Below the pieces are notes generated by a model. That model made no database searches and had not been told where the DNA came from. It saw nothing but the letters and a program-made list of their open reading frames with translations. The position numbers and the translations under genes are program-made. A stretch of DNA of 64,000 bases from Acidobacteriota bacterium. GTDB taxonomy: Bacteria; Acidobacteriota; Vicinamibacteria; Marinacidobacterales; Marinacidobacteraceae. Shown here piece by piece: positions 9,932 through 33,976 of the stretch (the stretch's first letter is position 1; each line of letters starts with the position of its first letter). The stretch is from assembly GCA_022822745.1 (NCBI GenBank), contig JAJEAO010000077.1:5143-69142 (forward strand), written 5' to 3'.

Positions 9932-10154
9932 GGGGCCGGATCGCCGCTCTCCGGCGCGGCGCCTCCGGTCGGTAGCCTGTTCCGGGGCATCGCCCTTCGC
10001 CTCCGGTTCCCGGCCGAATCTCGGGGCCGCGTCGCGCAATGGAGCGCCCCTCTCCCGGACGGTGCTTCCGGACCCGGGCCGGGCTGCGGTCAGCGGATTC
10101 GCCTCGCCACGCAACCGACTCCCTGACGCTTCGGTGGGTTCTTCCGTGAGCGGG

Positions 10155-19196: not shown

Positions 19197-19406
19197 GGAA
19201 AGGGGTGGCCCGCGCCGGAAAACGAGTGTATCAGGCAGCCGGAGACGGCCGGACCGTAGGGTAAAATCAGGACTTTACGGGTGGGTGTTCCGGGTGCTCC
19301 CGGCGGAATCCCGGCGTTCGCTGCGACCGTCGGGGGCCCCGACGCCCGCCCTTCGCGTTCGAGCGAGTCCCGCGCCCCGGGGAAGACGGTTCTCCCGCGC
19401 CCCCGC

Positions 19407-19422
19407 GAGTCCCCGGGGACTC
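19407..19422. promoter_or_regulatory. Perfect 16-bp palindrome upstream of hppA
   Basis: GAGTCCCCGGGGACTC lies about 35 nt upstream of the hppA GTG, in the divergent intergenic region. Confidence 0.25.
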
Positions 19423-19455
19423 CCTTCCATCCGGTTGGCCTGAACGGAGGCATCC

Positions 19456-21498
<2,043 letters not shown>

Positions 21499-21501
<3 letters not shown>

Positions 21502-21789
21502 GGAGCGCGATAGGGAGCGCCGGGCTCCTATGGAGCGCCACTCTCCTATGGAGCGCCGCTCTCCTATGGAGCGCCGCTCTCCAGAGCGGCAATTCCCGAC
21601 ACGGACCCGGCCGGCGCGCTCGCCGGCTCGCCGGGCTCCTATGGAGCGCCACTCTCCTGGGGAGCGCCACTCTCCTATGGAGCGCCGCTCTCCAGAGCGG
21701 CAAATCTCGACCCCAGCCGGGCTCCATTGCGGTGCCGGTCTGGAGACCGGCCAGTTCTCCTGGTGGGGGCCTCCATAGAGGGACGCTCC
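21499..21789. repeat. Array of about 18-bp units carrying the palindrome GGAGCGCCGCTCC, arranged as two 74-bp blocks
   Basis: Blocks 21519-21592 and 21630-21703 are near-identical, 111 bp apart. Each holds three CTCCTATGGAGCGCCRCT units and ends in GCCGCTCT-CC-AGAGCGGC. Partial units (tagggagcgc twice) sit at 21499-21520. There is an inverted partial copy (ctccatagagggacgctcc) at 21771-21789 and a CCGGTCT-GG-AGACCGG hairpin at 21735-21750. Confidence 0.85.
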
Positions 21790-21837
21790 GCGCCGTGCCG
21801 GTTCTCGCGGTAGCGGCCCCGCCCGGCACAGGGCCGA

Positions 21838-24800
21838 ATGGGCTGGTACTTTCGTGGCTCCCCGTTCGTGGGAGCGCACAAGACCTTGCCGCCCGGCCCT
21901 CCCGACCACGACGCTGCCCGAGCCAGGAGCCGCGATGAGCCGCCGCTCCCGCCCTGCCTCTCGTTCGACCTCGAGGTGGGTGAGAAGGACGGAGGAATCC
22001 ACGCCGTAGGCGCGATCCGCTCGGATACCAGGAAGTCCTTCGAGCACTACGGCGCCCGCGACATGCGGAGGGCCCTCCTGCGACTTGATGAGTTGGCGAA
22101 CGGGGCGGAGTTCGTTCTCGGCCACAACATCATCAAGCACGACCTGCCGCTCCTGAAGAAGGCCGCGCCGAACCTCCGGCTGCTCCGCTTGCCCGCCCTG
22201 GACACGCTGCGGCTCAGTCCCCTCGCGTTCCCCCGGAATCCGTACCACCGCCTGGTCAAGCACTACAAGGACGGAGGCTTCCGAACCACGACCCGGAACA
22301 ACCCGAAGCACGATGCCAGGCTCGCGCTCGATCTGTTCCGCGAGGAGCGGGAGGCGCTGTCCGCGCAGGATTCCCATCGGCTCACCGCCTGGCACTGGCT
22401 GGCCGCGACGGAACCAGGCCAGGGCGCCCGGGGAATGGACCGCTTGTTCCACGATCTCCGCGGGCAGCCTCGGCCGTCGCGGCGCGAAGCGCAGGAAGCG
22501 GTCCGATTCTGCCTCGATCGCGACGGCGCGTGTCAGACCGCCGGGGAGGAGATCGTCGAGCGAGTCGACGGCCAGGGATGGCCGCTCGCCTACGCGCTCG
22601 CGTGGCTCTCGGTCGCTGGGGGGAACTCCGTCATGCCGCCGTGGGTGCGACGCGCGTTCCCGGAGGCGCCGCGTCTGATACGGAGGCTGTGCGACGAGAG
22701 GTGCGCTGACGCCGACTGCTGGTGGTGTCGGGAACGTCTCGATCCCGGCGAGGAACTGACGCGGTGGTTCGGCTTCGAGACCTTTCGCCCCGAACCCGCA
22801 ATGGAGGATGGCCGCCCGATGCAGGGCGCGATCGTCGAAGCCGCCATGAAGCGCCGACACCTTCTCGGGATCCTCCCCACCGGGGCCGGCAAGTCGGTCT
22901 GCTACCAGGTTCCCGCGCTGTCGCGTTACCAGCGGACAGGCGCCCTGACGGTCGTCATCTCGCCGCTGGTTGCACTCATGGCGGATCAGGTGGCTGGCCT
23001 GGAAAAGCGCGGGATCACCGGCTGCGTGACGGTGAACAGCCTCCTGTCCCTGCCGGAGCGCAGGGAAGTGCTGAACCGGATCCGGCTCGGCGACGCTGGA
23101 ATCGTGCTCATCGCTCCCGAGCAACTTCGCTCGCCGACGGTTCGCAGGGCTCTCGCCCAGCGCGAGATCGGCGGCTGGGTGCTCGACGAAGCCCATTGCC
23201 TGTCCTGGTGGGGTCACGACTTCCGCCCGGACTACCTCTACATCGGCCGCTTCATCCGCGAGCGGGCAAAGGAGGACGGGAGTGCGATTCCCCCGGTGAT
23301 GTGTCTCACGGCGACCGCGAAGCCGGACGTGAGGGACGACATCGCCCGCCACTTTCGCAAGAAAGTCGGGATCGAACTGCTCGTTTTCGACGGCGGCGCC
23401 GAGCGCAGGAACCTCAAGTTCGATGTTCGTGAAACGACCCGGTCGCAGAAGAATCGGCATGTCCTCGAATCCCTCGAGACACACCTCGATCCCGACACCC
23501 GAGATGGAGCCATCGTTTACTGCTCCACCAGGCGGAGGAGCGAGAGCGTCGCTGAATTCCTGAGAGAAGGCGGCTTCAAAGCGGCTCACTACCACGCGGG
23601 TATGAAGCCCGAGACCCGGAAGGAAGTCCAGGAGGACTTCATCCGCGGCGATCTCCGCGCGATCGCAGCGACGAACGCGTTCGGGATGGGGATCGACAAG
23701 CCGGATGTGCGCCTCGTGCTCCACGCCGATGCTCCGGGATCGCTCGAGAACTACTTGCAGGAGGCCGGGCGGGCCGGCCGTGACGGCGACCCGGCGCGAT
23801 GTGTCCTGCTCTACTCGCCGGACGACATCGAGCGGCAGTTCGGGCTGTCGGCGCGCTCGCGGCTCGCTCACTACGAGATCGTCGCAATCCTGAAGGCGCT
23901 GCGCTGCTTGGATCGTCGGAATCGGAGGCACGCGTCCAATGGAGATGTCGTGGTCACGTCGGGCGAGATCCTGCACGCCGACGCCGAAAGTGGATTCGAG
24001 CGGGACAGCGCCACCGACGACACCCGCACTCGAATGGCCGTCGCCTGGCTGGAAGAGGCTCATTTCCTCCAGCGCAACGAGAACGCCATCCGGGTCTTCC
24101 CGTCATCGCTCCGGGTTCTATCGCTTGAGAGGGCGGAAGCGAAGCTGAAGGCTGCCAGGGGACTTTCCGAATCGGACCGCGAGCGGCTGCTGTGTGTCAC
24201 CGGGGCCATTCTCGGAGCCGGTGCTGACGAAGGCATCACGACCGACGAATTGATGGGAAAGTGCGATCTGTCACCCGAACAGGTGACGCACACCCTCTCG
24301 AGACTCCACGGATTCGGCATCACGACGGCGAAGACGGCGATCACGGCCTACGTTCATCGCGCTGTCCCTGATTCGTCGGCTCGGCGACTCGAGGAGGCCC
24401 GGAACCTCGAAACCGCCCTGATCGCACATCTTCGCGAGGCAGCCCCGGACCTGACCGTGGGCGAGAGCTCTCGGCTGGATCTTCGGATCGCCGCGCAGCG
24501 ACTCCACGACGATGGAGCAACAGGGGCGCATCCAGCGCGTCTCTGGCGGATCGTCCGAAGCATTCGCTACGACGGACGCGGCGAGAAGCCGGATGCCGTG
24601 GGCAGTTGGGCGGCGCGGAAACTGGGTCCCTGGGCTGCGCGGATCACGCTGCGAAGGGACTGGGGAGACCTGAAGGCTCTCGCCGCGAATCGGCAGAGCA
24701 TCGCCCGGAGTCTGTTGACGCATCTGCTGGAACGGTTGCCGGAGGGCGCGCGGGGCAAGGATCTCCTCGCCGAGACGACACTGGAGGCGCTGGGTGGAGT

Positions 24801-27108
24801 GGTTCACAGCGACCTGTTCGCGAGTTTCGCCATGAACGCTGAGGAACTCACGCATCGAGCCATCCTCTGGCTCCACGAGCAGGACGTGATTCGCCTGCAC
24901 AAGGGGCTCGCGATCTTCCGCCCGGCGATGAGGATCCGGATGCAGTCGCGGAGGCGCCGGCAGGGCTACACGAAACGTGATTTCGAGCCCCTTCGATTCC
25001 ACTATCAGCGCCAGATCCTCCAGGTCCACGTGATGAAGGAGTTCGCCGAACGGGGCTCGAAGGCCGTGTCAGAGGCGCTCGCGCTGGCCACGGACTACTT
25101 CTCGATGGAAGAGAAGAAGTTCCTCGACCGCTGGATGCCGGGGCGGGAACAGGAGGTGCGCATTCAGACGACGCCGGAGTCGAAGCGGCGCATCGTCGAA
25201 GAGCTGCGGAACCCCGAGCAGGAAGCGATCGTTGCCGATGACCGGGACGACACCAACGTGCTCGTTCTGGCCGGCCCGGGCTCGGGGAAGACCCGCGTCC
25301 TGGTCCACCGCATCGCCTACCTGGTTCGGGTCCGGCGGGAGGATCCCGGAGGCATCGTGGCGTTGAGCTACAACCGCCATGCCGCGGCTCAGATCCGTCG
25401 CCGGCTTCTCGATCTCGTCGGTGACGATGCCCGGCGGGTGACAGTGCTCACGTGCCACGCGCTTGCGATGCGTCTCCTCGGGAGGACGTTCGCGGACCGC
25501 AAGGAACGGCTCGACGACGGCGCGTTTGCCAACCTGTTGCGCGAGGCGACGGCTCTCCTCGAAGGCAAGGATCTACCCCCGGAGGATCAGACGGAGGCGG
25601 CGGCGCGCCGGGAGCGACTTCTCGCGGGATTTCGATGGATCTTCGTGGACGAGTACCAGGACATCGGACCCGGGGAGTACGACTTGATCTCGGCGCTCGC
25701 CGGGCACACGCGCCAGGACGGCGACGAAAGGCTCAACTTGTTCGCGGTTGGCGATGACGACCAGAACATCTACTCGTTCAAGGGCGCCTCGGTGCGCTTC
25801 ATCCGTCGCTTCAACGAGGACTACGGGCCGAACGTTGCCTGCCTGACGCAGAACTACCGGTCCACGCGGCAGATCATCGAGGCTTCCAACGTTCTGATCT
25901 CGGCGGCGAAGGCGCGGATGAAGGGGTCGAAGCACGAGATCCGGATCAACACGGCTCGGCGGAGCGAGCCCCCGGGAGGCCGCTGGACGACTCTCGATCC
26001 GATGGCTCGCGGGAGGGGGCAGATCCTCCCGGCCGGGCGCGATTCTGCAGAGCAGGCCGTCGCGGTCGTGGAGGAACTGCGGCGGCTCGCCTCGCTCGAT
26101 CCGGACTGGGACTGGTCGCGCTGCGCCGTGGTGTCGCGGAAGAGGGAGCTTCTCGATCCTGTCCGCGCCGTCTGTGAGCCCGCTGGCATCCCGGTCCAGA
26201 TGGGCGACGAGAAGATGCCGCCTTTCTGGCGGTTACGGGAAACGCGGGAGTTTGTCGGCTGGCTCCGATCCGGAGAGTCGCGGGTCGTCGAGCCCGACGA
26301 GCTCAGCCAGTGGCTGGACGAAAGACCCTCCAATCCTTGGTGGGATCTCTTGCGGCAGGCTGTCGAGCAACACCACGAAGAGGCCGGGGCTGCCTCGCAC
26401 CCGGTAGGGCCCTTCGTCGAATGGCTGGCGGAGTGGGGGCACGAGGTGCGACGCCGCCAGCGGGGCCTCCTCCTGACGACGGCGCACCGCGCCAAAGGGC
26501 TGGAGTTCGACCACGTGGCCGTGCTCGATGGAGACTGGGACGGGGCATGGGACAACGAGGATGCCGACGCCCCACGACGGCTCTACTACGTTGCCATGAC
26601 CCGCGCCCGGGAGACGCTCCTCCTGGCCCGAATGGAGTCCCCGACCGCGCTGCAGGAGGATCTGCTGAAGCTGCCCAGCGTCCTGCGCCGCGACGCGAGG
26701 CCGAGGAAACCTGCCCCCTCCGCAGCTCACCTCCGCACGGTCCGACTCGGGATGAAGGATGTGGACCTGGGTTTCGCCGGGTGCTTCCGTGCTGGTCACC
26801 CGATCCACCGCCGAATCCGCGCCCTGAACCCGGGCGACGTACTGACCATCCGCGTCAACTTCCCGGGCTGGGATCTGCTCAACGGCTCCAGTCACCTGGT
26901 AGGCCGCCTCGCCATGAGGTTCCGACCCCCGAACGGCATGCGCTGCCGATCCGTCACGGTTGCGGCGATCGTCGCCTGGAGCCGCGCCGACACGAAGCCC
27001 AAGTACCTCGAGCGCTGCGACTGCGACGAATGGGAAGTCGTCCTCCCGGAACTCGTCTTCGAACCCGATGGCACTCCCGTGCTTCGCGTCCCGCATGGAG
27101 CCTCCTGA
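21838..27108 (+). CDS. Giant fusion protein: DEDD-type 3'-5' exonuclease + RecQ-family helicase + UvrD/PcrA-family helicase
   Basis: N-terminus: SFDLEVGE, GHNIIKHDLPLL and LDTLRLS (DnaQ-like exo motifs). RecQ core: ILPTGAGKSVCYQVPAL, VISPLVALMADQV, VLDEAHCLSWWGHDFRPDY, CLTATA, ATNAFGMGIDKPDVRLVLH and QEAGRAGRDG. UvrD core: VLAGPGSGKTRVLVHRIAYL, IFVDEYQDIGPGEY, FAVGDDDQNIYSFKGA, LTQNYRSTRQII, LLTTAHRAKGLEFDHV and YYVAMTRARETLLL. The start is uncertain (ATG 21838, GTG 21868 or TTG 21886). Confidence 0.85.
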   Translation: MGWYFRGSPFVGAHKTLPPGPPDHDAARARSRDEPPLPPCLSFDLEVGEKDGGIHAVGAIRSDTRKSFEHYGARDMRRALLRLDELANGAEFVLGHNIIKHDLPLLKKAAPNLRLLRLPALDTLRLSPLAFPRNPYHRLVKHYKDGGFRTTTRNNPKHDARLALDLFREEREALSAQDSHRLTAWHWLAATEPGQGARGMDRLFHDLRGQPRPSRREAQEAVRFCLDRDGACQTAGEEIVERVDGQGWPLAYALAWLSVAGGNSVMPPWVRRAFPEAPRLIRRLCDERCADADCWWCRERLDPGEELTRWFGFETFRPEPAMEDGRPMQGAIVEAAMKRRHLLGILPTGAGKSVCYQVPALSRYQRTGALTVVISPLVALMADQVAGLEKRGITGCVTVNSLLSLPERREVLNRIRLGDAGIVLIAPEQLRSPTVRRALAQREIGGWVLDEAHCLSWWGHDFRPDYLYIGRFIRERAKEDGSAIPPVMCLTATAKPDVRDDIARHFRKKVGIELLVFDGGAERRNLKFDVRETTRSQKNRHVLESLETHLDPDTRDGAIVYCSTRRRSESVAEFLREGGFKAAHYHAGMKPETRKEVQEDFIRGDLRAIAATNAFGMGIDKPDVRLVLHADAPGSLENYLQEAGRAGRDGDPARCVLLYSPDDIERQFGLSARSRLAHYEIVAILKALRCLDRRNRRHASNGDVVVTSGEILHADAESGFERDSATDDTRTRMAVAWLEEAHFLQRNENAIRVFPSSLRVLSLERAEAKLKAARGLSESDRERLLCVTGAILGAGADEGITTDELMGKCDLSPEQVTHTLSRLHGFGITTAKTAITAYVHRAVPDSSARRLEEARNLETALIAHLREAAPDLTVGESSRLDLRIAAQRLHDDGATGAHPARLWRIVRSIRYDGRGEKPDAVGSWAARKLGPWAARITLRRDWGDLKALAANRQSIARSLLTHLLERLPEGARGKDLLAETTLEALGGVVHSDLFASFAMNAEELTHRAILWLHEQDVIRLHKGLAIFRPAMRIRMQSRRRRQGYTKRDFEPLRFHYQRQILQVHVMKEFAERGSKAVSEALALATDYFSMEEKKFLDRWMPGREQEVRIQTTPESKRRIVEELRNPEQEAIVADDRDDTNVLVLAGPGSGKTRVLVHRIAYLVRVRREDPGGIVALSYNRHAAAQIRRRLLDLVGDDARRVTVLTCHALAMRLLGRTFADRKERLDDGAFANLLREATALLEGKDLPPEDQTEAAARRERLLAGFRWIFVDEYQDIGPGEYDLISALAGHTRQDGDERLNLFAVGDDDQNIYSFKGASVRFIRRFNEDYGPNVACLTQNYRSTRQIIEASNVLISAAKARMKGSKHEIRINTARRSEPPGGRWTTLDPMARGRGQILPAGRDSAEQAVAVVEELRRLASLDPDWDWSRCAVVSRKRELLDPVRAVCEPAGIPVQMGDEKMPPFWRLRETREFVGWLRSGESRVVEPDELSQWLDERPSNPWWDLLRQAVEQHHEEAGAASHPVGPFVEWLAEWGHEVRRRQRGLLLTTAHRAKGLEFDHVAVLDGDWDGAWDNEDADAPRRLYYVAMTRARETLLLARMESPTALQEDLLKLPSVLRRDARPRKPAPSAAHLRTVRLGMKDVDLGFAGCFRAGHPIHRRIRALNPGDVLTIRVNFPGWDLLNGSSHLVGRLAMRFRPPNGMRCRSVTVAAIVAWSRADTKPKYLERCDCDEWEVVLPELVFEPDGTPVLRVPHGAS

Positions 27109-27229
27109 CGGCCAGCGTCTCTTGCAACACTGGCCCACATGGCATGTCCCTGCGTGGCGGAGATTGGATACCTAGACTCGATGGCCGCGTGCGGTCTGAT
27201 AGCCTCATCCGGTCGGCCCGACGGAGTGT

Positions 27230-27496
27230 GTGCCGACCATGCGTGGCGTGACCATGGCGCTGTCAATCAGACTGTTTTCCGGGCCTTCTGACCCCCTGCG
27301 TCCCCTGCCTCCGTTTGTCGAGCAGCAGTTTGTCGAGCAGCAGCGTCTCGTCGCCGAGGTCTATGAACTCATGGCTCTCTGTGACCGGCTGGAGGCTGGT
27401 CTTGATGCCACGGACGGCACCCGGAATCGCCTTCTGCATGACACGCTGACGCCATCCGCGTACGAAGCTGCTACTGTCGGGGCGGTTGGGGCATGA
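27230..27496 (+). pseudogene. hsdS: Remnant of a type I restriction-modification specificity subunit (C-terminal conserved helix only)
   Basis: PLPPFVEQQ..RLVAEVYELMALCDRLEAGL matches the conserved HsdS C-terminal coiled-coil region (PPLxEQxxIVxxvdxLmalcDxLEa). There is no target-recognition domain upstream. It contains a perfect 15-bp tandem duplication. Confidence 0.6.
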
Positions 27497-28641
27497 TCCG
27501 CGTCTCGGTGCGCCCCGAGATGCTGCGCTGGGCTTGTGAGCGCGCGGGCCACGATGTGGCCCACTTCTCTGAGCGGGTGCCGCAACTGTCGGCCTGGATC
27601 CGGCGAGAGCGAAGGCCGACGCTGAAACAACTGGAGAAGATGGCGAGAGTCACCCACACTCCGCTCGGCTACCTGTTCCTCCGGGAGCCTCCCGACGAAC
27701 GCCTCCCCGTGGCTGACTACCGCACGGTGTCGGGCACCGCTGCAGCCAAGCCGGGTCCCGACCTGCTGGACACGCTGTACGCGATGCTGCGCCGCCAGGC
27801 CTGGTTGCGGGAGTCGCGCGTGGAGCACGAGGCGGAGCCACGGGCGTTCGTGGCGAGCGCCCGTCTCGCCGACGAGCCCGATGCGGCGGGGCGCGAGATG
27901 CGGCGGTCACTCGGCCTGGACGACGGATGGGCGGCCCGAGTCCGAACTTGGCAGGACGCTGTGGGTGAGTTGCGCCGTTCGATCGAGAACCTGGGCGTGA
28001 TGGCGGTGATCAACGGCGTGGTGGGGAACAACACCCATCGTCGACTGAGAGTGGAGGAGTTCCGCGGCTTCGCGCTCCCGGATCCCTACGCGCCGCTGAT
28101 TTTCGTGAACGGCGCCGATGCGAAATCGGCGCAGATGTTCACGCTTGCCCACGAACTGGCGCACATCTGGCTCGGCAGGGATGGGGTCTCCGGCTTCGAT
28201 GCCCTGCTTCCACACGGTACCGAGGTCGAGCACTGGTGCAATCGCGCGGCGGCTGAACTGCTCGCGCCCGCCCGGGAAGTCACGGCCCGGTGGATGGAGG
28301 TGAGACGGTCGCCGAGTCCGTTCGATTCGCTGGCGCGGTCGTTCAAGGTGAGCCCGGTCGTGGCCGCCCGTCGCGCTCTCGACCTCTCGCTCATCGGCCG
28401 CGGCGCCTTCTTCGCCTTCTACGAGCGGTACATGGAGCGGGAGGGCGAGAGCGGGACCAAGCCGACCGGGGGCGATTTCTTCAACAACCAGAACACGCGT
28501 GTTGGCGAGTTGTTCGCGACCCATGTTCTGCGCGCTGCGTTGGAGGGCCGAATCGGCTTCAAGGATGCCTATGACCTGACCGGGCTCCGCGGAGGAACGT
28601 TCCAGAAGTACGCCAGACGCTTGGGTTGGGATCTTCCATGA
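27493..28641 (+). CDS. ImmA/IrrE-family metallopeptidase with an N-terminal HTH-like region
   Basis: The ATG overlaps the hsdS-stub stop (ATGA). FTLAHELAHIWLG (HExxH) and WCNRAAAELLAP are present. The N-terminus resembles an XRE-like domain. Confidence 0.8.
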   Translation: MIRVSVRPEMLRWACERAGHDVAHFSERVPQLSAWIRRERRPTLKQLEKMARVTHTPLGYLFLREPPDERLPVADYRTVSGTAAAKPGPDLLDTLYAMLRRQAWLRESRVEHEAEPRAFVASARLADEPDAAGREMRRSLGLDDGWAARVRTWQDAVGELRRSIENLGVMAVINGVVGNNTHRRLRVEEFRGFALPDPYAPLIFVNGADAKSAQMFTLAHELAHIWLGRDGVSGFDALLPHGTEVEHWCNRAAAELLAPAREVTARWMEVRRSPSPFDSLARSFKVSPVVAARRALDLSLIGRGAFFAFYERYMEREGESGTKPTGGDFFNNQNTRVGELFATHVLRAALEGRIGFKDAYDLTGLRGGTFQKYARRLGWDLP

Positions 28642-29162
28642 GCGCGGATCGGGTCTTTCTCGTGGATTCGGATGTATTCATCACGGCAAAGAACCTGTAC
28701 TACGCGTTCGACATCTGCCCCGGGTTCTGGAAGAGCCTGCTCCATCATCACCAAGCCGGCCGCGTCTACAGCATAGACCGTGTGCGCGGCGAGCTCCTCG
28801 CGGGCAGCAAGACCGAGGATCTGGTGCGCTGGGTGAGGAGCGAGGTTCCGCAGGAGTTTTTCCTCCCCGTGGACACTGCTTCCGTGGCGAGCTCCTACAC
28901 GGACATCATGATGTGGGTCCAGCGCCACCCTCGGTACTTCGACTACGCGAAGGCAAAGTTCGCGACGGGCGCGGACGGCTGGCTGGTCGCGTACGCACGG
29001 GTCCACGGCGCAGTCGTCGTGACCAACGAGCAGAGCGCCCCGGAGTCCAGGAGAGAGGTGAAGCTTCCCGATCTATGCGCTCGTTTCCGAGTCCGACACG
29101 AGAACACGTTCGCCATGCTTCGCGCGCTGAAAGTGCAGTTCGATCAGACCGGAGACCACTGA
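28638..29162 (+). CDS. DUF4411-family (PIN-like) protein, the usual partner of ImmA/IrrE
   Basis: The ATG at 28638 overlaps the upstream stop (ATGA). VFLVDSDVFITAKNLYYAFDICPGFWKSLL, VYSIDRVRGEL, DGWLVAYARVHGAVVVTNE. Confidence 0.75.
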   Translation: MSADRVFLVDSDVFITAKNLYYAFDICPGFWKSLLHHHQAGRVYSIDRVRGELLAGSKTEDLVRWVRSEVPQEFFLPVDTASVASSYTDIMMWVQRHPRYFDYAKAKFATGADGWLVAYARVHGAVVVTNEQSAPESRREVKLPDLCARFRVRHENTFAMLRALKVQFDQTGDH

Positions 29163-29680: not shown

Positions 29681-31501
29681 TCAAGAGGTTGCGGTACCTT
29701 GCAATGCTCCGTCCCTTGCCTTCACACCGGAGTATGAGATACCAAGGCTAGACGCGGATCCCGCACCTTGATCTGACCCGCGATCCGATATCCCGCCTAG
29801 AGCCTTGCTGAGTAGGTCTAGTTCCGATTTCAACCGGGAACAGAGCTCGTCGAAATGACCCCGGAAACCGTCATCCCTCCGCTGAATCTGCTGGAGAAAC
29901 TCATGCGCTCGTCTCCCCTTTGTGTGTGACATCACTGTCCTCGCACGTTGAAGCTCTCGGAGCCCACTGAGTTCAGAGCCCTGGGCCTCCGGTATAGTTT
30001 CCTGTACAAGTCGCCTCAGCAGCATCAGGCTCCCTTCTGCGGGCTTCGGCTTCATGCCACATTCGGTCGCCGTGTGACGCAGCCACTTCAGATCGAACCC
30101 CTCAATCAAGACGCTGGCTAGGGCACGACACTTCTCGCTCCATTCCTCGCGACTCTGCGTGAACATGGGCCGGATATCGGCGAGAGCTGATTCGTCTCGG
30201 CATATCCACCATGGAGTGCTCATCTTCTTCCATTCATGGAGCTTCCGCGTCACTGCGGACACGGCTGCATCTTGAGACTTCAAGTCCGTCCACTTGCCGG
30301 CGAAATCCATGGCGATGATGTCAGGTGAGAGCTGGGCCTTAGGGGCTTCGTTATAGCCCCTCCAGTGCATCTGTTCGCTATAGGGGAGTTGCCGCAAGTA
30401 GCGAAGGTAGGCATGGACCTGACCCGCCTCGTTGCGACCGATGGCTTGGAGTTCCCAGATGTCTTTGCATGTGATGGTTCGGCCGTTGATGACATACTTT
30501 CCGGAATCACTCTCATACTTGCGCAGAACCTCTGGTCGGAAGAAGGCCGGTGACATTTCATATGGCAAGCGGGGCCTCTTTTCTGCGTAGTTCGTAGTAG
30601 CGCTAGGATCCAGAGAAACTCTGACAACTTGTTCATGGCGCCAGTCGTGGGTCAAGAAGGACAGCGGTGGCCCTGACTCTCGAGGAAGGAGGCCGGAGTC
30701 CAGCGACGCAATGATGGCGGCTCGTGATTGGGAGAGGGGGAGAATCTGAACACCGCGCACATAGCCAGCATAGCCCGGATCCTCGAACCGACGGAATGTC
30801 AGAGTATCGTCTTTCTGTATGGGAGGTGGATCATGTCGTGGCCACATGGCAAACGTGTTCGGATCATACAGGTTGAAGTCAAACAGGCGTACTAGGGTCA
30901 GGTTGGCTGCGGCGAGGTACTGCTCAAGAGGATAGCGATAGAACGACACCACGGAGGGAGTTGACGATTCTCGATTGAGCGTTGCAGAGACGATGTCGAC
31001 GAGGTCGCCGTTTTCGTCCCTGAGCAGGAACCGACCACCGGGAGCGACGCAGGGAATCTCGGAGACGTGAGCGTACTCCTGGTGAACCTCGATCTGCAGT
31101 TCTCCTGATCCCGTGTTGGATATGGTGGTCCTGCGGTAAAGGAGAGAGTGTGCGCGAGACAGAGCGGCGGGGCGCCAGGGGCCGTCAGCGACGTCAACAT
31201 GAGAGTCCTGTGGAGCGCCGGAATAGACGTAGCCGATTCGCGTGGATGGAAGGCCGCCGTCCCAATCGAGCAGATCCGTGTCCCGGACTGATTGGAGGTC
31301 GAGGGTCGGCACGGCCACGGTGTGAATGAAGATGTGGGGTGACGCCACGTCGATGAGGAGTTGATCCTCGCGGGCATTCTGTCGAAGGAGACGAAGGTGA
31401 TCGACACCCTTGATCCAATGGGCGTGCTTTCCGGCACTGCTCGGAGGGGTATGAACGGCTTGGACTCGTCGGATGAGGTTCTTGTGTTCAAAGCGCGGCA
31501 T
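29681..31501 (-). CDS. Hypothetical protein, 606 aa, no family recognised
   Basis: Long ORF with varied, non-repetitive amino-acid composition in a visibly AT-richer segment. ATG at 31501 (MPRFEHKNLI). The ORF-track start at 31531 is also possible. The C-terminal helical region carries R-x4-H (RTVMSH). Confidence 0.65.
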   Translation of the reverse strand: MPRFEHKNLIRRVQAVHTPPSSAGKHAHWIKGVDHLRLLRQNAREDQLLIDVASPHIFIHTVAVPTLDLQSVRDTDLLDWDGGLPSTRIGYVYSGAPQDSHVDVADGPWRPAALSRAHSLLYRRTTISNTGSGELQIEVHQEYAHVSEIPCVAPGGRFLLRDENGDLVDIVSATLNRESSTPSVVSFYRYPLEQYLAAANLTLVRLFDFNLYDPNTFAMWPRHDPPPIQKDDTLTFRRFEDPGYAGYVRGVQILPLSQSRAAIIASLDSGLLPRESGPPLSFLTHDWRHEQVVRVSLDPSATTNYAEKRPRLPYEMSPAFFRPEVLRKYESDSGKYVINGRTITCKDIWELQAIGRNEAGQVHAYLRYLRQLPYSEQMHWRGYNEAPKAQLSPDIIAMDFAGKWTDLKSQDAAVSAVTRKLHEWKKMSTPWWICRDESALADIRPMFTQSREEWSEKCRALASVLIEGFDLKWLRHTATECGMKPKPAEGSLMLLRRLVQETIPEAQGSELSGLRELQRARTVMSHTKGRRAHEFLQQIQRRDDGFRGHFDELCSRLKSELDLLSKALGGISDRGSDQGAGSASSLGISYSGVKARDGALQGTATS

Positions 31502-31601
31502 GGGGAGCCTCCTGAGTGGCCACGGTGGCATAGAGCATCATATGTACTGGGAACGAAACTATGATACCATGGACTGCGCTCAGGGCAAGCGAAGGGGGCC
31601 G

Positions 31602-32732
31602 ATGGTGGAGATTGCGGCGAATCTGGCGCGGCTGCGCCTGGATCGCCGACTGACCCAGGCCCGCCTGGCTGAGCGGGCTGGACTGTCCCGGGTCGCCGTC
31701 GGCAAGATCGAGCGCGGCGCCGTCGTCCCGCGCGCCGGGACGCTGGTCGCGCTGGCGCGGGCTCTGGACGTGCCGGTTCGGGATCTGATCGCCCGCGTCC
31801 GGCCGCTGAGGAGCGTCCGGTTCCGAGCGCGTTCTCGACTGTACGGGCGGGAGCAGATTCTCGCCGAGGTCTCACGATGGCTGGATAACTATGGTGGGCT
31901 GGAGGACGCGCTCGGGAGGCGCCTCGAGTTCAGCCTCCGGGATCTCGTGACTCCGGGTTCTGTTGTCTCGCCTCCCGATGTCGCCCGCAGGGCCCGGGAG
32001 CGAGCGGCCCTGGATCGGGTCGCGCCGGTCGGGAACATCTGTCGGTTCCTGGAGGAGGCGGGAGTCAAGGTGCTCCTGCTCGACAAGAAGCGGGACTCCT
32101 TCTTCGGGTTGAGCGTCGGGCCGGAGGATCGGGGACCGGCAGTCGTAGTGAACGTCTGGGATCGGATCTCGGTCGAGCGCTGGATCTTCACCGCGGCCCA
32201 CGAGATGGGGCACCTGCTCCTGCATCCGATGGAGTTCGATCCCGAGGAGACCCGGCCCCCGAAGGCGACCGAGAAGGAGGCCGACAGTTTTGCCAGCCAT
32301 TTCCTGATGCCGGAACCCGCCTTCAAGCGGGAGTGGAACGCGACTCGTGGCACCTCGTTGCTCTGGCGCGTCCTCACGGTGAAGCGAATTTTCCGCGTGA
32401 GCTACCGGACGGTTCTGTTCCGTCTATACGAGACAGAGCGCGCCGGCGCCGGAGTCTGGGCCGCCTTCCAGACACAGCATCGGCGGTACCTCGGGCGAAC
32501 CCTGAAGAAGGCGGACGAGCCGAACCCACTCGGGAGGAGTGAGTTCTCCTGGAGTGCCCCTCGGGCGGGCGAACCGGCCGCCTTGTTGGAGCATGATTTC
32601 CGTGGATTCCGCCTCGTGCGGCTCGTCCGCCAAGCTGTCGAGCAGGGCCGGATTTCGCTCGGGCGCGCGGCCGAGATTCTGGGTCTCCCGTTGGAGGAAA
32701 TGCGGGTGCGCGCACGTGAGTGGGCCGAGTAG
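31602..32732 (+). CDS. XRE-family HTH fused to an ImmA/IrrE (M78) metallopeptidase domain
   Basis: ATG at 31602 preceded by GAAGGGGG. RLTQARLAERAGLSRVAVGKIERG (HTH_3), FTAAHEMGHLLLHP (HExxH) and EKEADSFASHFLMP. Confidence 0.85.
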   Translation: MVEIAANLARLRLDRRLTQARLAERAGLSRVAVGKIERGAVVPRAGTLVALARALDVPVRDLIARVRPLRSVRFRARSRLYGREQILAEVSRWLDNYGGLEDALGRRLEFSLRDLVTPGSVVSPPDVARRARERAALDRVAPVGNICRFLEEAGVKVLLLDKKRDSFFGLSVGPEDRGPAVVVNVWDRISVERWIFTAAHEMGHLLLHPMEFDPEETRPPKATEKEADSFASHFLMPEPAFKREWNATRGTSLLWRVLTVKRIFRVSYRTVLFRLYETERAGAGVWAAFQTQHRRYLGRTLKKADEPNPLGRSEFSWSAPRAGEPAALLEHDFRGFRLVRLVRQAVEQGRISLGRAAEILGLPLEEMRVRAREWAE

Positions 32733-32791: not shown

Positions 32792-33976
32792 TCAGTCGGT
32801 CTTCGCCCAGATCGTGAGGCGGAGCTCCTCGCCGAAGAGCTCGTACGTGGGGCGGCGACCCGAGTGCGCTTCGCTCGCTTCGAGAATTCGGCGTACGCCT
32901 TCGCCGCGGGATTCGAGGAAGACGCGTGCCGTCCGGTGGCTGTGGATGCGCGAGAGGAAGTTCACGAGAAGCTGATTGCGGGTGAAGACACGGTAGGGCA
33001 TGTCGTCGAGCGTCATCGTGTTGGGTAGCTTGCCCGGGCTGTAGAGTTCGAGCCGGTCGCGGAAGAGGAACAGGCGAATCTTGGAGCCGTAGATCGAATA
33101 GTCGCGGTGCGCTACGGCGTTCACCACGGCTTCGGCCACGACATCGGGATCGAACGCCTTTTCGCCGGCACGGGACCGGATAAAGGCGACGGCGGCATCG
33201 ATCTGTTCGGGCACCGGGCCGCGAACTCGCTGTTCGTGGAGCAGGTCGTCCGAGGAGAGTCGCGTTCCCTCGTAGGAAGCCGCCTCGATCCATGCGCTTC
33301 GCAGGTGTTCCGTCGGCCGCTGTCCGAAGGTCAGGAGACCCGCCACCGTGGGGCGGTCCACGTGCTCCTCGTCACGAAGGATGACCCGAGCGTTGCGAAG
33401 CAGATCGAGCCAGGGGATGGTCGGTGAACGTCCGAAGAACGACTCCAGTCGGTTCCAGTCGAGGTCGTTGACGCTGGCTGCGAACACGGGCTGCTCGTCG
33501 AAGACGTAGCCTCGGCCGCGATCCTGGAAGAGTCGCGCCAGTTCGGGTGGGTCGAGGTCCCGCTTCGTCGAGCCCACGCGGATCGTGTAGCGGCCTCCGG
33601 CCGTGCGATGGACGAAGTTGCCCCGCGGGATCTCCGCCAGCAGGACGTGCCGCTCCTGTCCGGTCTCATCCGGCAGGAGTTCCCGACGCAGCGTCGGGCG
33701 AATGGGCGGGACGCTGTTGTTCGACGCGATGTTCACGAGCCAGGTCTCGACGAGGCCGACCCGTTCGGCCGGAATGCCCACGACCTCGCCTGAGTCGGCG
33801 ATGCCGAGCAGGAGGACTCCTCCGACGCCGTTGGCGAAGGCCACCATTTCCGCCGCCAGATCGTCACGGTTGGGTGAGATCACGCTTCGCTTGCCGAAGC
33901 GAATCTCCTTGAATTCCGTGCGGCTGTCCTCCCCAGCGCGGCACTGCCGGAGGATCGGTTCGCGAGCGTTCATCAT
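32792..33976 (-). CDS. AlbA_2 (Schlafen-like) DNA-binding domain + HATPase_c_4-like ATP-binding protein
   Basis: GEDSRTEFKE, LAAEMVAFANGVGGVLLLGI.DSGEVVGI, then AVVNAVAHRDYS and LELYSPGKLPN. Confidence 0.75.
   Translation of the reverse strand: MMNAREPILRQCRAGEDSRTEFKEIRFGKRSVISPNRDDLAAEMVAFANGVGGVLLLGIADSGEVVGIPAERVGLVETWLVNIASNNSVPPIRPTLRRELLPDETGQERHVLLAEIPRGNFVHRTAGGRYTIRVGSTKRDLDPPELARLFQDRGRGYVFDEQPVFAASVNDLDWNRLESFFGRSPTIPWLDLLRNARVILRDEEHVDRPTVAGLLTFGQRPTEHLRSAWIEAASYEGTRLSSDDLLHEQRVRGPVPEQIDAAVAFIRSRAGEKAFDPDVVAEAVVNAVAHRDYSIYGSKIRLFLFRDRLELYSPGKLPNTMTLDDMPYRVFTRNQLLVNFLSRIHSHRTARVFLESRGEGVRRILEASEAHSGRRPTYELFGEELRLTIWAKTD

Follow-up and report, generated by a model that had tools for sequence, protein, structure and literature searches.

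Can a single bacterial gene join an exonuclease to helicases of two superfamilies, and if so, is its product directed against foreign DNA or does it maintain the DNA of its host? The question is raised by a locus in a window of 64,000 nucleotides from an Acidobacteriota bacterium of the family Marinacidobacteraceae (assembly GCA_022822745.1, contig JAJEAO010000077.1, positions 5,143 to 69,142), where an initial annotation, made from the letters alone, had read a DEDD exonuclease, a RecQ helicase and a UvrD helicase in one uninterrupted frame. The gene is complete at 21838..27108 on the forward strand of the window, encoding 1756 amino acids from an ATG to a stop codon that is included in these limits, and an independent gene call on the source contig returns the same limits. 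Analysis of the domain composition shows that the encoded product is one large ATP-driven DNA helicase-nuclease of five modules.

The frame is free of internal stops, and its G+C content at the first, second and third codon positions (GC1/2/3 = 0.70/0.48/0.82) is a coding signature for DNA of ~68% G+C; the length of the open reading frame (ORF) is not evidence by itself because long chance ORFs are common in DNA of that composition. A search with the whole protein found more than 100 clusters of 1700-1770 amino acids that share 60-62% identity with it over 97-99% coverage, and a further one that reaches 74% identity; the homologues that bear a name are called 'RecQ family ATP-dependent DNA helicase'. 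The three enzyme modules in one frame are a conserved architecture, represented by these full-length clusters, by ~20 full-length genomic loci and by 26 plasmid records, and the check for sequencing or assembly frameshifts that the initial annotation had called for does not break the gene into two or three, the same uninterrupted frame recurring across the clusters. The fusion is genuine, of old origin and widespread. Homologues show no conservation over the first 25-35 residues, and therefore the true start may lie slightly downstream, which affects no domain. Scans of positions 21400-27600 found no promoter or terminator.

The complete RecQ and UvrD motif sets read at the outset are confirmed by hidden Markov models (HMMs), by matches to the PDB and by invariance in an alignment of 30 full-length homologues. 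The core of the RecQ-family helicase, of superfamily 2 (SF2), occupies residues 306-667 (22753..23838, forward strand), with motif 0, GxGKS (Walker A lysine K352), DEAH (450-453), TAT and QxxGRAGR all invariant. Pfam places DEAD at residues 326-499 and Helicase_C at 545-650; the NCBIfam model recQ_fam (TIGR00614) is passed with 304.2 bits against a cutoff of 219.8; and sequence matches in the PDB over residues 307-693 are to RecQ, BLM, WRN and RECQ1/5, with E from 1e-51 to 1e-68. The helicase motifs and the curated HMM together place this half in the RecQ family. The score for the RecQ equivalog TIGR01389 is 346 bits, below its cutoff of 640; the PDB alignments to RecQ end at residue ~664-693; and Pfam gives no match to the HRDC domain at E<=0.1. 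The four-cysteine zinc subdomain of the RecQ C-terminus is absent, because residues 666-1117 contain no conserved cysteine.

Behind the RecQ core lies a family-specific linker of 450 amino acids (residues 668-1117; 23839..25188, forward strand), strongly conserved, to the same degree as the catalytic cores. It matches nothing in Pfam or, as a profile of nine sequences, in the PDB, which agrees with the initial description of a linker of about 450 residues that could not be assigned. The linker alone, used as a database query, retrieves nothing but fragments of this family, in which Helicase_C or UvrD-helicase lies alongside.

The second motor, a UvrD/PcrA-type helicase core of superfamily 1A (SF1A), spans residues 1118-1600 (25189..26637, forward strand), with invariant AGPGSGKT (Walker A lysine K1151), DEYQD, GDDDQNIY, NYRS, AKGLEF and YVAMTRA. 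Pfam finds UvrD-helicase and AAA_19 at residues 1125-1315 and UvrD_C at 1545-1598, all above their cutoffs (PF00580, 131.8 bits against 23; PF13361, 52.8 against 25.6; PF13245, 78 against 25.1), and residues 1118-1361 match UvrD1, PcrA, UvrD and Rep in the PDB by sequence, the first three with E from 1e-31 to 1e-35. The equivalog models for UvrD, PcrA and Rep all score far below cutoff. Judged by its motifs and profiles, this half is a member of the UvrD/Rep/PcrA (SF1A) family and the orthologue of none of the three. From the invariance of their catalytic motifs, both ATPases are expected to be active. Characterised RecQ and UvrD/PcrA enzymes translocate 3'->5' on single-stranded DNA. The initial description of the UvrD half as a motor of the opposite family holds in that the two motors belong to different superfamilies; it does not hold for polarity, opposite in RecBCD and here expected to be 3'->5' for both.

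The N-terminus is informative by structure prediction only. None of the curated exonuclease models (RNase_T, DNA_pol_A_exo1 and similar) passes, the one match being to DNA_pol_B_exo1 (E=0.049; 13.4 bits against a cutoff of 23); nothing in the PDB matches by sequence; and the N-terminus of every homologue is without a recorded Pfam domain. An AlphaFold model of residues 26-325, built from an alignment of 40 sequences, has a mean predicted local distance difference test score (pLDDT) of 88.3 and a predicted template-modelling score (pTM) of 0.85, and its top matches in a Foldseek search of the PDB are all DnaQ-fold exonucleases: the best is the Cas2-associated DnaQ domain 8h2f (E 2e-4, probability 1.0, template-modelling score (TM) normalised to the target 0.61), followed among others by the Staphylococcus aureus DinG exonuclease (9ii8, 8zef), the T7 DNA polymerase exonuclease, the CBASS protein Cap18 (7t2s), RNase T and Escherichia coli epsilon, over a range of E from 2e-4 to 5e-2 and of target-normalised TM from 0.5 to 0.6. 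The exonuclease claim thus stands by structure and fails by sequence HMMs, and the model, hhalign and conservation together delimit a DnaQ-fold (DEDD) 3'-5' exonuclease-like domain at residues ~38-180 (21949..22377, forward strand). Its motifs are Exo I DLE (D44, E46), Exo II GHNxxxxD (H96, N97, D102) and Exo III NDPxxDA (D159); D44, E46, D102 and D159 are invariant in the 30 homologues and are kept in Bacteroides and Nostoc clades that are ~30% identical.

The fifth catalytic residue is different. In Exo III the domain has neither the histidine of the DEDDh form (Hx4D) nor the tyrosine of the DEDDy form (Yx3D): an hhalign alignment with E. coli epsilon pairs Asp167 with D159 and the general base, His162, with the invariant Asn154, and the N-x4-D form persists in the Bacteroides and Nostoc clades. 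The domain is therefore DnaQ/epsilon-like with asparagine for the catalytic histidine, and not a WRN-type DEDDy exonuclease. An invariant loop nearby (P135, Y136, H137, K141, H142, Y143, D145) may contribute to catalysis, H137, H142 or Y143 being candidates to supply the base. The fold and metal site are kept and the canonical fifth residue is not; nuclease activity is likely.

Between the exonuclease and the RecQ core, the model and conservation define an all-helical module at residues ~181-305 (22378..22752, forward strand), with a near-invariant LAYALAWLSVAGGNSVMPPWV segment and four invariant cysteines (C232, C289, C294 and C297, a CxxxxCxxC plus one distal cysteine). This Cys4 cluster, which probably binds zinc, precedes the RecQ core, whereas in canonical RecQ such a site follows it.

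At the other end of the protein, a poorly conserved connector (residues 1601-1632) leads to a compact, beta-rich C-terminal domain at residues ~1633-1743 (26734..27066, forward strand), modelled with a pLDDT of 91.5, in which G1648, H1657, G1666, D1667, W1732 and E1733 are near-invariant. The initial annotation had remarked on a Cys-containing tail of about 120 residues; cysteine is indeed present but is unconserved across the family, and thus incidental, and the tail is instead a probable HIRAN-like beta-domain. Foldseek finds no significant match for it in the PDB, and the only annotated matches that recur are HIRAN domains, those of HLTF (4s0n, 4xzg, 6kcs) and Rad5, joined by a domain of the Hachiman helicase HamB, with probability about 0.3-0.77 across these; in the viral library BFVD, two proteins labelled 'HIRAN domain' are matched with probability 0.98 and 0.92 (E 6e-3 to 3e-2). 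By sequence, nothing in the PDB matches the tail, and 13 tail sequences match no Pfam profile, the HIRAN profile PF08797 included, at E<=10. A HIRAN-like fold for the tail is moderately supported, Foldseek being the source of that assignment.

Searches with the N-terminus, the linker or the tail alone retrieve almost only fragments of the same family, and the tail domain is found only behind the UvrD module of this family. The one exception in these searches is an 828-residue protein (P0360) that has UvrD, the same beta-domain at residues 556-665 and ~160 extra residues, and is without the exonuclease-RecQ half, which suggests that UvrD and tail form an independent evolutionary module.

The family comprises at least several hundred clusters at 90% identity in eight or more phyla and on many plasmids. 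A scan of species-representative genomes found the ~20 full-length loci, at 37-62% identity, in Rhodobacterales, Pseudomonadales, other Gammaproteobacteria, the betaproteobacterial Ca. Methylophosphatis, Acidobacteriota, Dehalococcoidia, Acidimicrobiia, Binatia and Verrucomicrobiia. The 26 plasmid records carry the gene at at least 80% coverage and include those of Thiothrix, Cereibacter, Rhizobium, Paracoccus, Sulfitobacter, Croceicoccus and Allochromatium; versions ~30% identical are found on Nostoc, Calothrix and Bacteroides replicons. The distribution is patchy and the identity across phyla is 55-60%, and this high identity, with carriage on plasmids, indicates horizontal spread. Carriage by phages is rejected, as phage records reach at most 21% coverage of the protein, and then the RecQ core only. 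Many relatives (P0121-P0240, P0391-P0509) are fragments of 280-730 amino acids on contigs of up to several Mb, and the corresponding region of the Nostoc plasmid pNPUN02 (locus L093, 7728-12746) is annotated as three consecutive genes; such fragmented relatives reflect either frequent pseudogenisation or gene splitting, or indel errors in long-read assemblies.

What might such a protein do? DnaQ-type exonucleases remove nucleotides from 3' ends, and HIRAN domains, which bind free 3'-OH ends, direct the reversal of forks, so that it is a reasoned inference that every recognisable module handles DNA 3' ends or moves 3'->5'. In the mechanism that we propose, a free 3'-OH end, such as that of a nascent strand at a fork, of a D-loop, of a rolling-circle intermediate or of linear DNA, would be captured by the tail; the UvrD motor would load on the 3'-ended strand and strip or unwind it; the RecQ motor would migrate the branch or regress the fork on the second arm; and the exonuclease would trim the released 3' end. 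Because the motors differ in superfamily but not in expected polarity, this would not be a bipolar machine of the RecBCD type. We read the gene as a self-contained, horizontally mobile module whose likeliest benefit would be to restrict the replication of foreign DNA, of phages or plasmids, rather than to serve core repair. We consider a stand-alone mobile helicase-nuclease that works on 3' ends and forks and acts against foreign DNA to have slightly less than an even chance of being correct, with defence weakly favoured over repair; the defence role is the least secure step of the explanation. A bolder version is unlikely to be right: that the protein is a previously unrecognised single-gene immune effector, in which a HIRAN-like sensor would seize the nascent 3' end of the invader, two coupled 3'->5' motors would reverse or dismantle the foreign fork and a 'DEDD-N' exonuclease would degrade the strand, so that the combined activities of WRN and HLTF would have a bacterial counterpart directed at phages and plasmids.

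A role against foreign DNA is favoured because the gene is carried alone, is spread patchily across phyla, occurs on plasmids and has insertion sequences (ISs), toxin-antitoxin genes and defence genes among its neighbours. When the six-frame ORFs of 22 loci were compared all-vs-all by BLAST, no gene family proved common to their flanks; the gene stands alone and travels without a partner. At some loci the neighbours are IS4 and IS110 transposases with HicAB, PemK and Phd, at others IS6, IS630 and IS66 elements with HipA and VapC; single loci have a type I-D CRISPR system with a WYL gene, RES and BrnT toxins, a complete type I restriction-modification (R-M) system with HNH, and an integrase-bearing island of hypothetical genes. 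PADLOC models, run at E<=1e-10 on 129 neighbour genes from 19 genomic loci, match Hma (two loci), PDC-S01 (two), RmrA (two), a DRT reverse transcriptase, Hhe, and type I and type IV restriction enzymes. In the window, the HsdS remnant, the ImmA/IrrE-DUF4411 pair, the RmrA-like gene and the Schlafen-type gene described below point the same way. These neighbourhoods resemble accessory, conflict-rich regions, a resemblance seen without a matched control.

Several results weigh against a role in defence. No partner, immunity or sensor gene accompanies the helicase, and several loci lie in purely metabolic or housekeeping neighbourhoods; of the ~15 that were inspected individually, 3-4 have a clear defence system, ~9 have toxin-antitoxin genes and ~7 have ISs or integrases, counts to which no control set corresponds. 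On the protein itself PADLOC reports no full-length model and only partial matches to DpdF, PsyrT and GajB through the shared helicase cores, which agrees with the initial statement that no named defence system is defined by this fusion. The mean column identity among the 30 homologues, 77%, is unusually high for a defence gene. The substitution of asparagine for the general-base histidine leaves exonuclease activity unassured, and the proposed capture of 3' ends depends on a tail whose matches to the HLTF HIRAN domain and Rad5 have E of 0.2-0.9 and low TM (0.3-0.45), which is weak support; the HIRAN assignment has Foldseek as its sole basis because an hhalign alignment of the tail with the HLTF HIRAN domain is not significant (probability 0.2%, E-value 0.26).

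The nearest relative, on contig L082, adds to these points. Its helicase is 74.5% identical and lies at the same site, after the same H+-pyrophosphatase (H+-PPase), and the flanking proteins of the two relatives are 85-97% identical. The rate of synonymous substitution (dS) is 0.83 for the helicase and 0.39-0.63 for the flanks, a ratio of ~1.7, and the ratio of nonsynonymous to synonymous rates (dN/dS) is 0.21. A dN/dS of 0.21 and a dS only modestly above that of the flanks fit stable vertical retention of the gene as a useful housekeeping accessory. A xenologous replacement at the H+-PPase site, suggested by the lower identity of the helicase than of its flanks, is unsupported, since on the same values in-place divergence is equally possible. 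To the right of the helicase the two relatives are non-syntenic: L082 is without a five-gene block that occupies 27.2-34 kb in the window, and the small downstream ORFs of the two are unrelated. The helicase gene is thus retained in the lineage under purifying selection, evolving faster than its neighbours, at the edge of a variable region. Its G+C content at third codon positions is 0.82, against ~0.9 in the flanking genes, and a region that starts at the gene and extends over 22-34 kb is lower in G+C than its flanks. The lower third-position G+C and the loss of synteny to the right speak for a mobile gene and for a role against foreign DNA.

The strongest competitor of a role against foreign DNA, in our judgement rather unlikely but deserving serious consideration, is that the protein is an accessory genome-maintenance enzyme, a functional analogue of WRN plus HLTF that remodels or resects stalled forks or recombination intermediates of the host, having been acquired horizontally and kept for tolerance of DNA damage. 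RecQ, UvrD, a DnaQ-type exonuclease and HIRAN are classical modules of fork processing and repair; conservation is high and selection purifying; the related genome retains the gene in synteny; some loci lie among housekeeping (GreA, GcrA, L31) or metabolic genes; and the gene is frequent on large megaplasmids or chromids of rhizobia and Paracoccus. Repair is less easily reconciled with the patchy distribution at 55-60% cross-phylum identity, with the lack of linkage to a repair operon or any conserved neighbour at the 22 loci, with the frequency of IS, toxin-antitoxin and defence genes nearby, or with a base composition atypical of the host.

Either biological role would be compatible with a catalytically dead N-terminal domain, which would bind ends or regulate, leaving the protein a pure two-motor translocase or protein-displacement machine. 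The asparagine at the position of the DEDDh general base is invariant in every clade examined, exonuclease HMMs all stay below threshold, and the structural matches of the domain include inactive members of the DnaQ fold, for example Exuperantia (5l80). We nevertheless think a dead nuclease improbable: the invariance of D44, E46, D102 and D159 across sequences of 27-74% identity is hard to explain without metal binding, and the neighbouring invariant H137/H142/Y143 loop could supply the base.

Service to mobile elements is more doubtful still. The gene could be cargo of plasmids or integrative and conjugative elements that processes the DNA of the element itself (in replication, in recombination or as conjugative single-stranded DNA) or counters host nucleases, and the full-length copies in the 26 plasmid records, among them a conjugative plasmid of Nostoc and a mobilizable one of Rhizobium, are in keeping with this, as are integrases, ParA, SSB and transposases among the neighbours; yet most of the plasmids that match the protein are typed as non-mobilizable, many copies lie on chromosomes, away from any element boundary or tRNA (the window contains no tRNA), no phage genome carries the gene, and the inspected loci show no linkage to relaxase or replication genes. 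That two or three genes were joined by a frameshift in sequencing or assembly, as the short fragments on long contigs and the three-gene annotation on pNPUN02 might suggest, is refuted for this window: complete genomes, plasmids and more than 100 independent clusters of full-length homologues show the same frame, and the linker is as conserved as the catalytic cores.

The surroundings of the gene in the window are mixed. It lies 3' of the H+-PPase gene and of a patch of 18-bp repeats. The intergenic 18-bp unit, which contains GGAGCGCCGCTCTCC, is clustered at 21514-21693 and 9938-10055; nine matches at <=2 mismatches were found against 1.9 expected by chance, seven of the nine in two tandem runs directly upstream of the helicase gene, and similar repeats occur downstream of the helicase on L082. 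The repeats look like elements of the REP (repetitive extragenic palindromic) or MITE (miniature inverted-repeat transposable element) type. An antisense ORF of 1598 amino acids (19267..24063, reverse strand), which spans the H+-PPase gene and the start of the helicase gene, was rejected as a gene: its codon-position G+C is non-coding, it fails the filter based on that measure, and it is a high-GC artefact.

Downstream, at ~27290-27460 on the forward strand, is an orphan C-terminal fragment of HsdS, for which all tblastn matches fall under genes annotated as 'restriction endonuclease subunit S'; neither hsdM nor hsdR is found near it, and the R-M remnant that the initial annotation placed beside the helicase is thereby located. 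It is followed at 27493-29162 (forward strand) by a gene for an ImmA/IrrE-type M78 peptidase (382 amino acids) that overlaps a DUF4411 gene (174-178 amino acids), which looks like a two-gene toxin-antitoxin-like or defence-like pair. A protein of 606-616 amino acids with no Pfam or PADLOC match is encoded at 29681-31531 on the reverse strand, divergent to a gene for a helix-turn-helix (HTH) plus M78 peptidase protein (31473-32732, forward strand) that matches the Rosmer RmrA models at E 2e-32; this divergent pair (29681-32732) could represent a Rosmer-like system in which the partner is novel. About 6 kb downstream of the helicase lies a gene of the AlbA_2/Schlafen plus HATPase_c_4 type (32792-33976, reverse strand), and such a gene is found also ~6 kb downstream of the helicase at the unrelated homologue locus L094 (19074-20282), a co-occurrence that could be coincidence or a loose association.

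If the protein functions as proposed, a single chain that couples two helicase superfamilies with a nuclease and a reader of 3' ends, widespread and unstudied, would provide a tractable bacterial model for WRN-like and HLTF-like cooperation on forks; should it prove protective, the anti-phage and anti-plasmid repertoire would gain a single-gene system that current defence annotators label only as a generic 'RecQ family helicase'. The parts are individually familiar, and what is new is the His-to-Asn DEDD site, the Cys4 cluster before RecQ and the HIRAN-like tail; a DEDD site that is intact but for an invariant Asn in place of His poses a clean enzymological question. This fusion is undescribed in the literature searched, coverage of which was incomplete, so that this is absence of evidence only.

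Among known proteins, WRN also has an N-terminal 3'-5' exonuclease fold of the DEDD superfamily followed by a RecQ-family DEAH core in one chain, and residues 326-676 have WRN chains among their best sequence matches in the PDB. The WRN exonuclease, however, is DEDDy (DNA_pol_A_exo1), whereas that of the protein described here is DnaQ/epsilon-like with asparagine, and the latter has no RQC zinc subdomain or HRDC and has an additional SF1A motor and a HIRAN-like tail. Of the WRN architecture that the initial annotation recognised, the order of exonuclease and RecQ therefore stands and kinship does not: the protein is an analogue and not a relative, and the resemblance is convergent architecture, not orthology. 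DinG of S. aureus and Bacillus subtilis is likewise a single-chain fusion of an epsilon-like DEDD exonuclease with an SF2 helicase, and the N-terminal model has S. aureus DinG (9ii8, 8zef) among its top structural matches; DinG differs in having a single motor, which is XPD-like and moves 5'->3', and a canonical DEDDh exonuclease.

RecBCD, AddAB and AdnAB, which are innate barriers to linear foreign DNA, share with the protein the use of two helicase motors and a nuclease on DNA ends and the presence of UvrD-like SF1A modules, and AddA and RecB profiles match its residues 1209-1377. Those enzymes are multi-subunit, with motors of opposite polarity (RecB, RecD) or with one dead motor, and with PD-(D/E)xK nucleases, whereas here a single chain unites a DnaQ-fold nuclease with one SF2 and one SF1A motor, whose expected direction is 3'->5' in both cases. 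By analogy, the proposed restriction of foreign DNA would be comparable to the attack on invader DNA by RecBCD/AddAB, Nhi, Hna and Gabija. GajB profiles of Gabija match the UvrD half, and DpdF of Dpd and PsyrT of PsyrTA (RqlHI) match the RecQ half, but these matches span the shared helicase cores only (positions 14-355 of 610 in the DpdF profile), and the obligatory partners GajA, PsyrA and the dpd cluster are absent, the flanks of the 22 loci having no gene family in common. Finally, HLTF and Rad5 have an N-terminal HIRAN domain, a Snf2 double-stranded DNA translocase and RING, whereas the domain described here is C-terminal to a UvrD motor and its likeness to theirs is structural only, at low TM; what the protein would share with them is the fusion of ATP-driven DNA motors to a beta-domain that is probably of the 3'-end-binding HIRAN type, an analogy that suggests capture of nascent 3' ends at forks.

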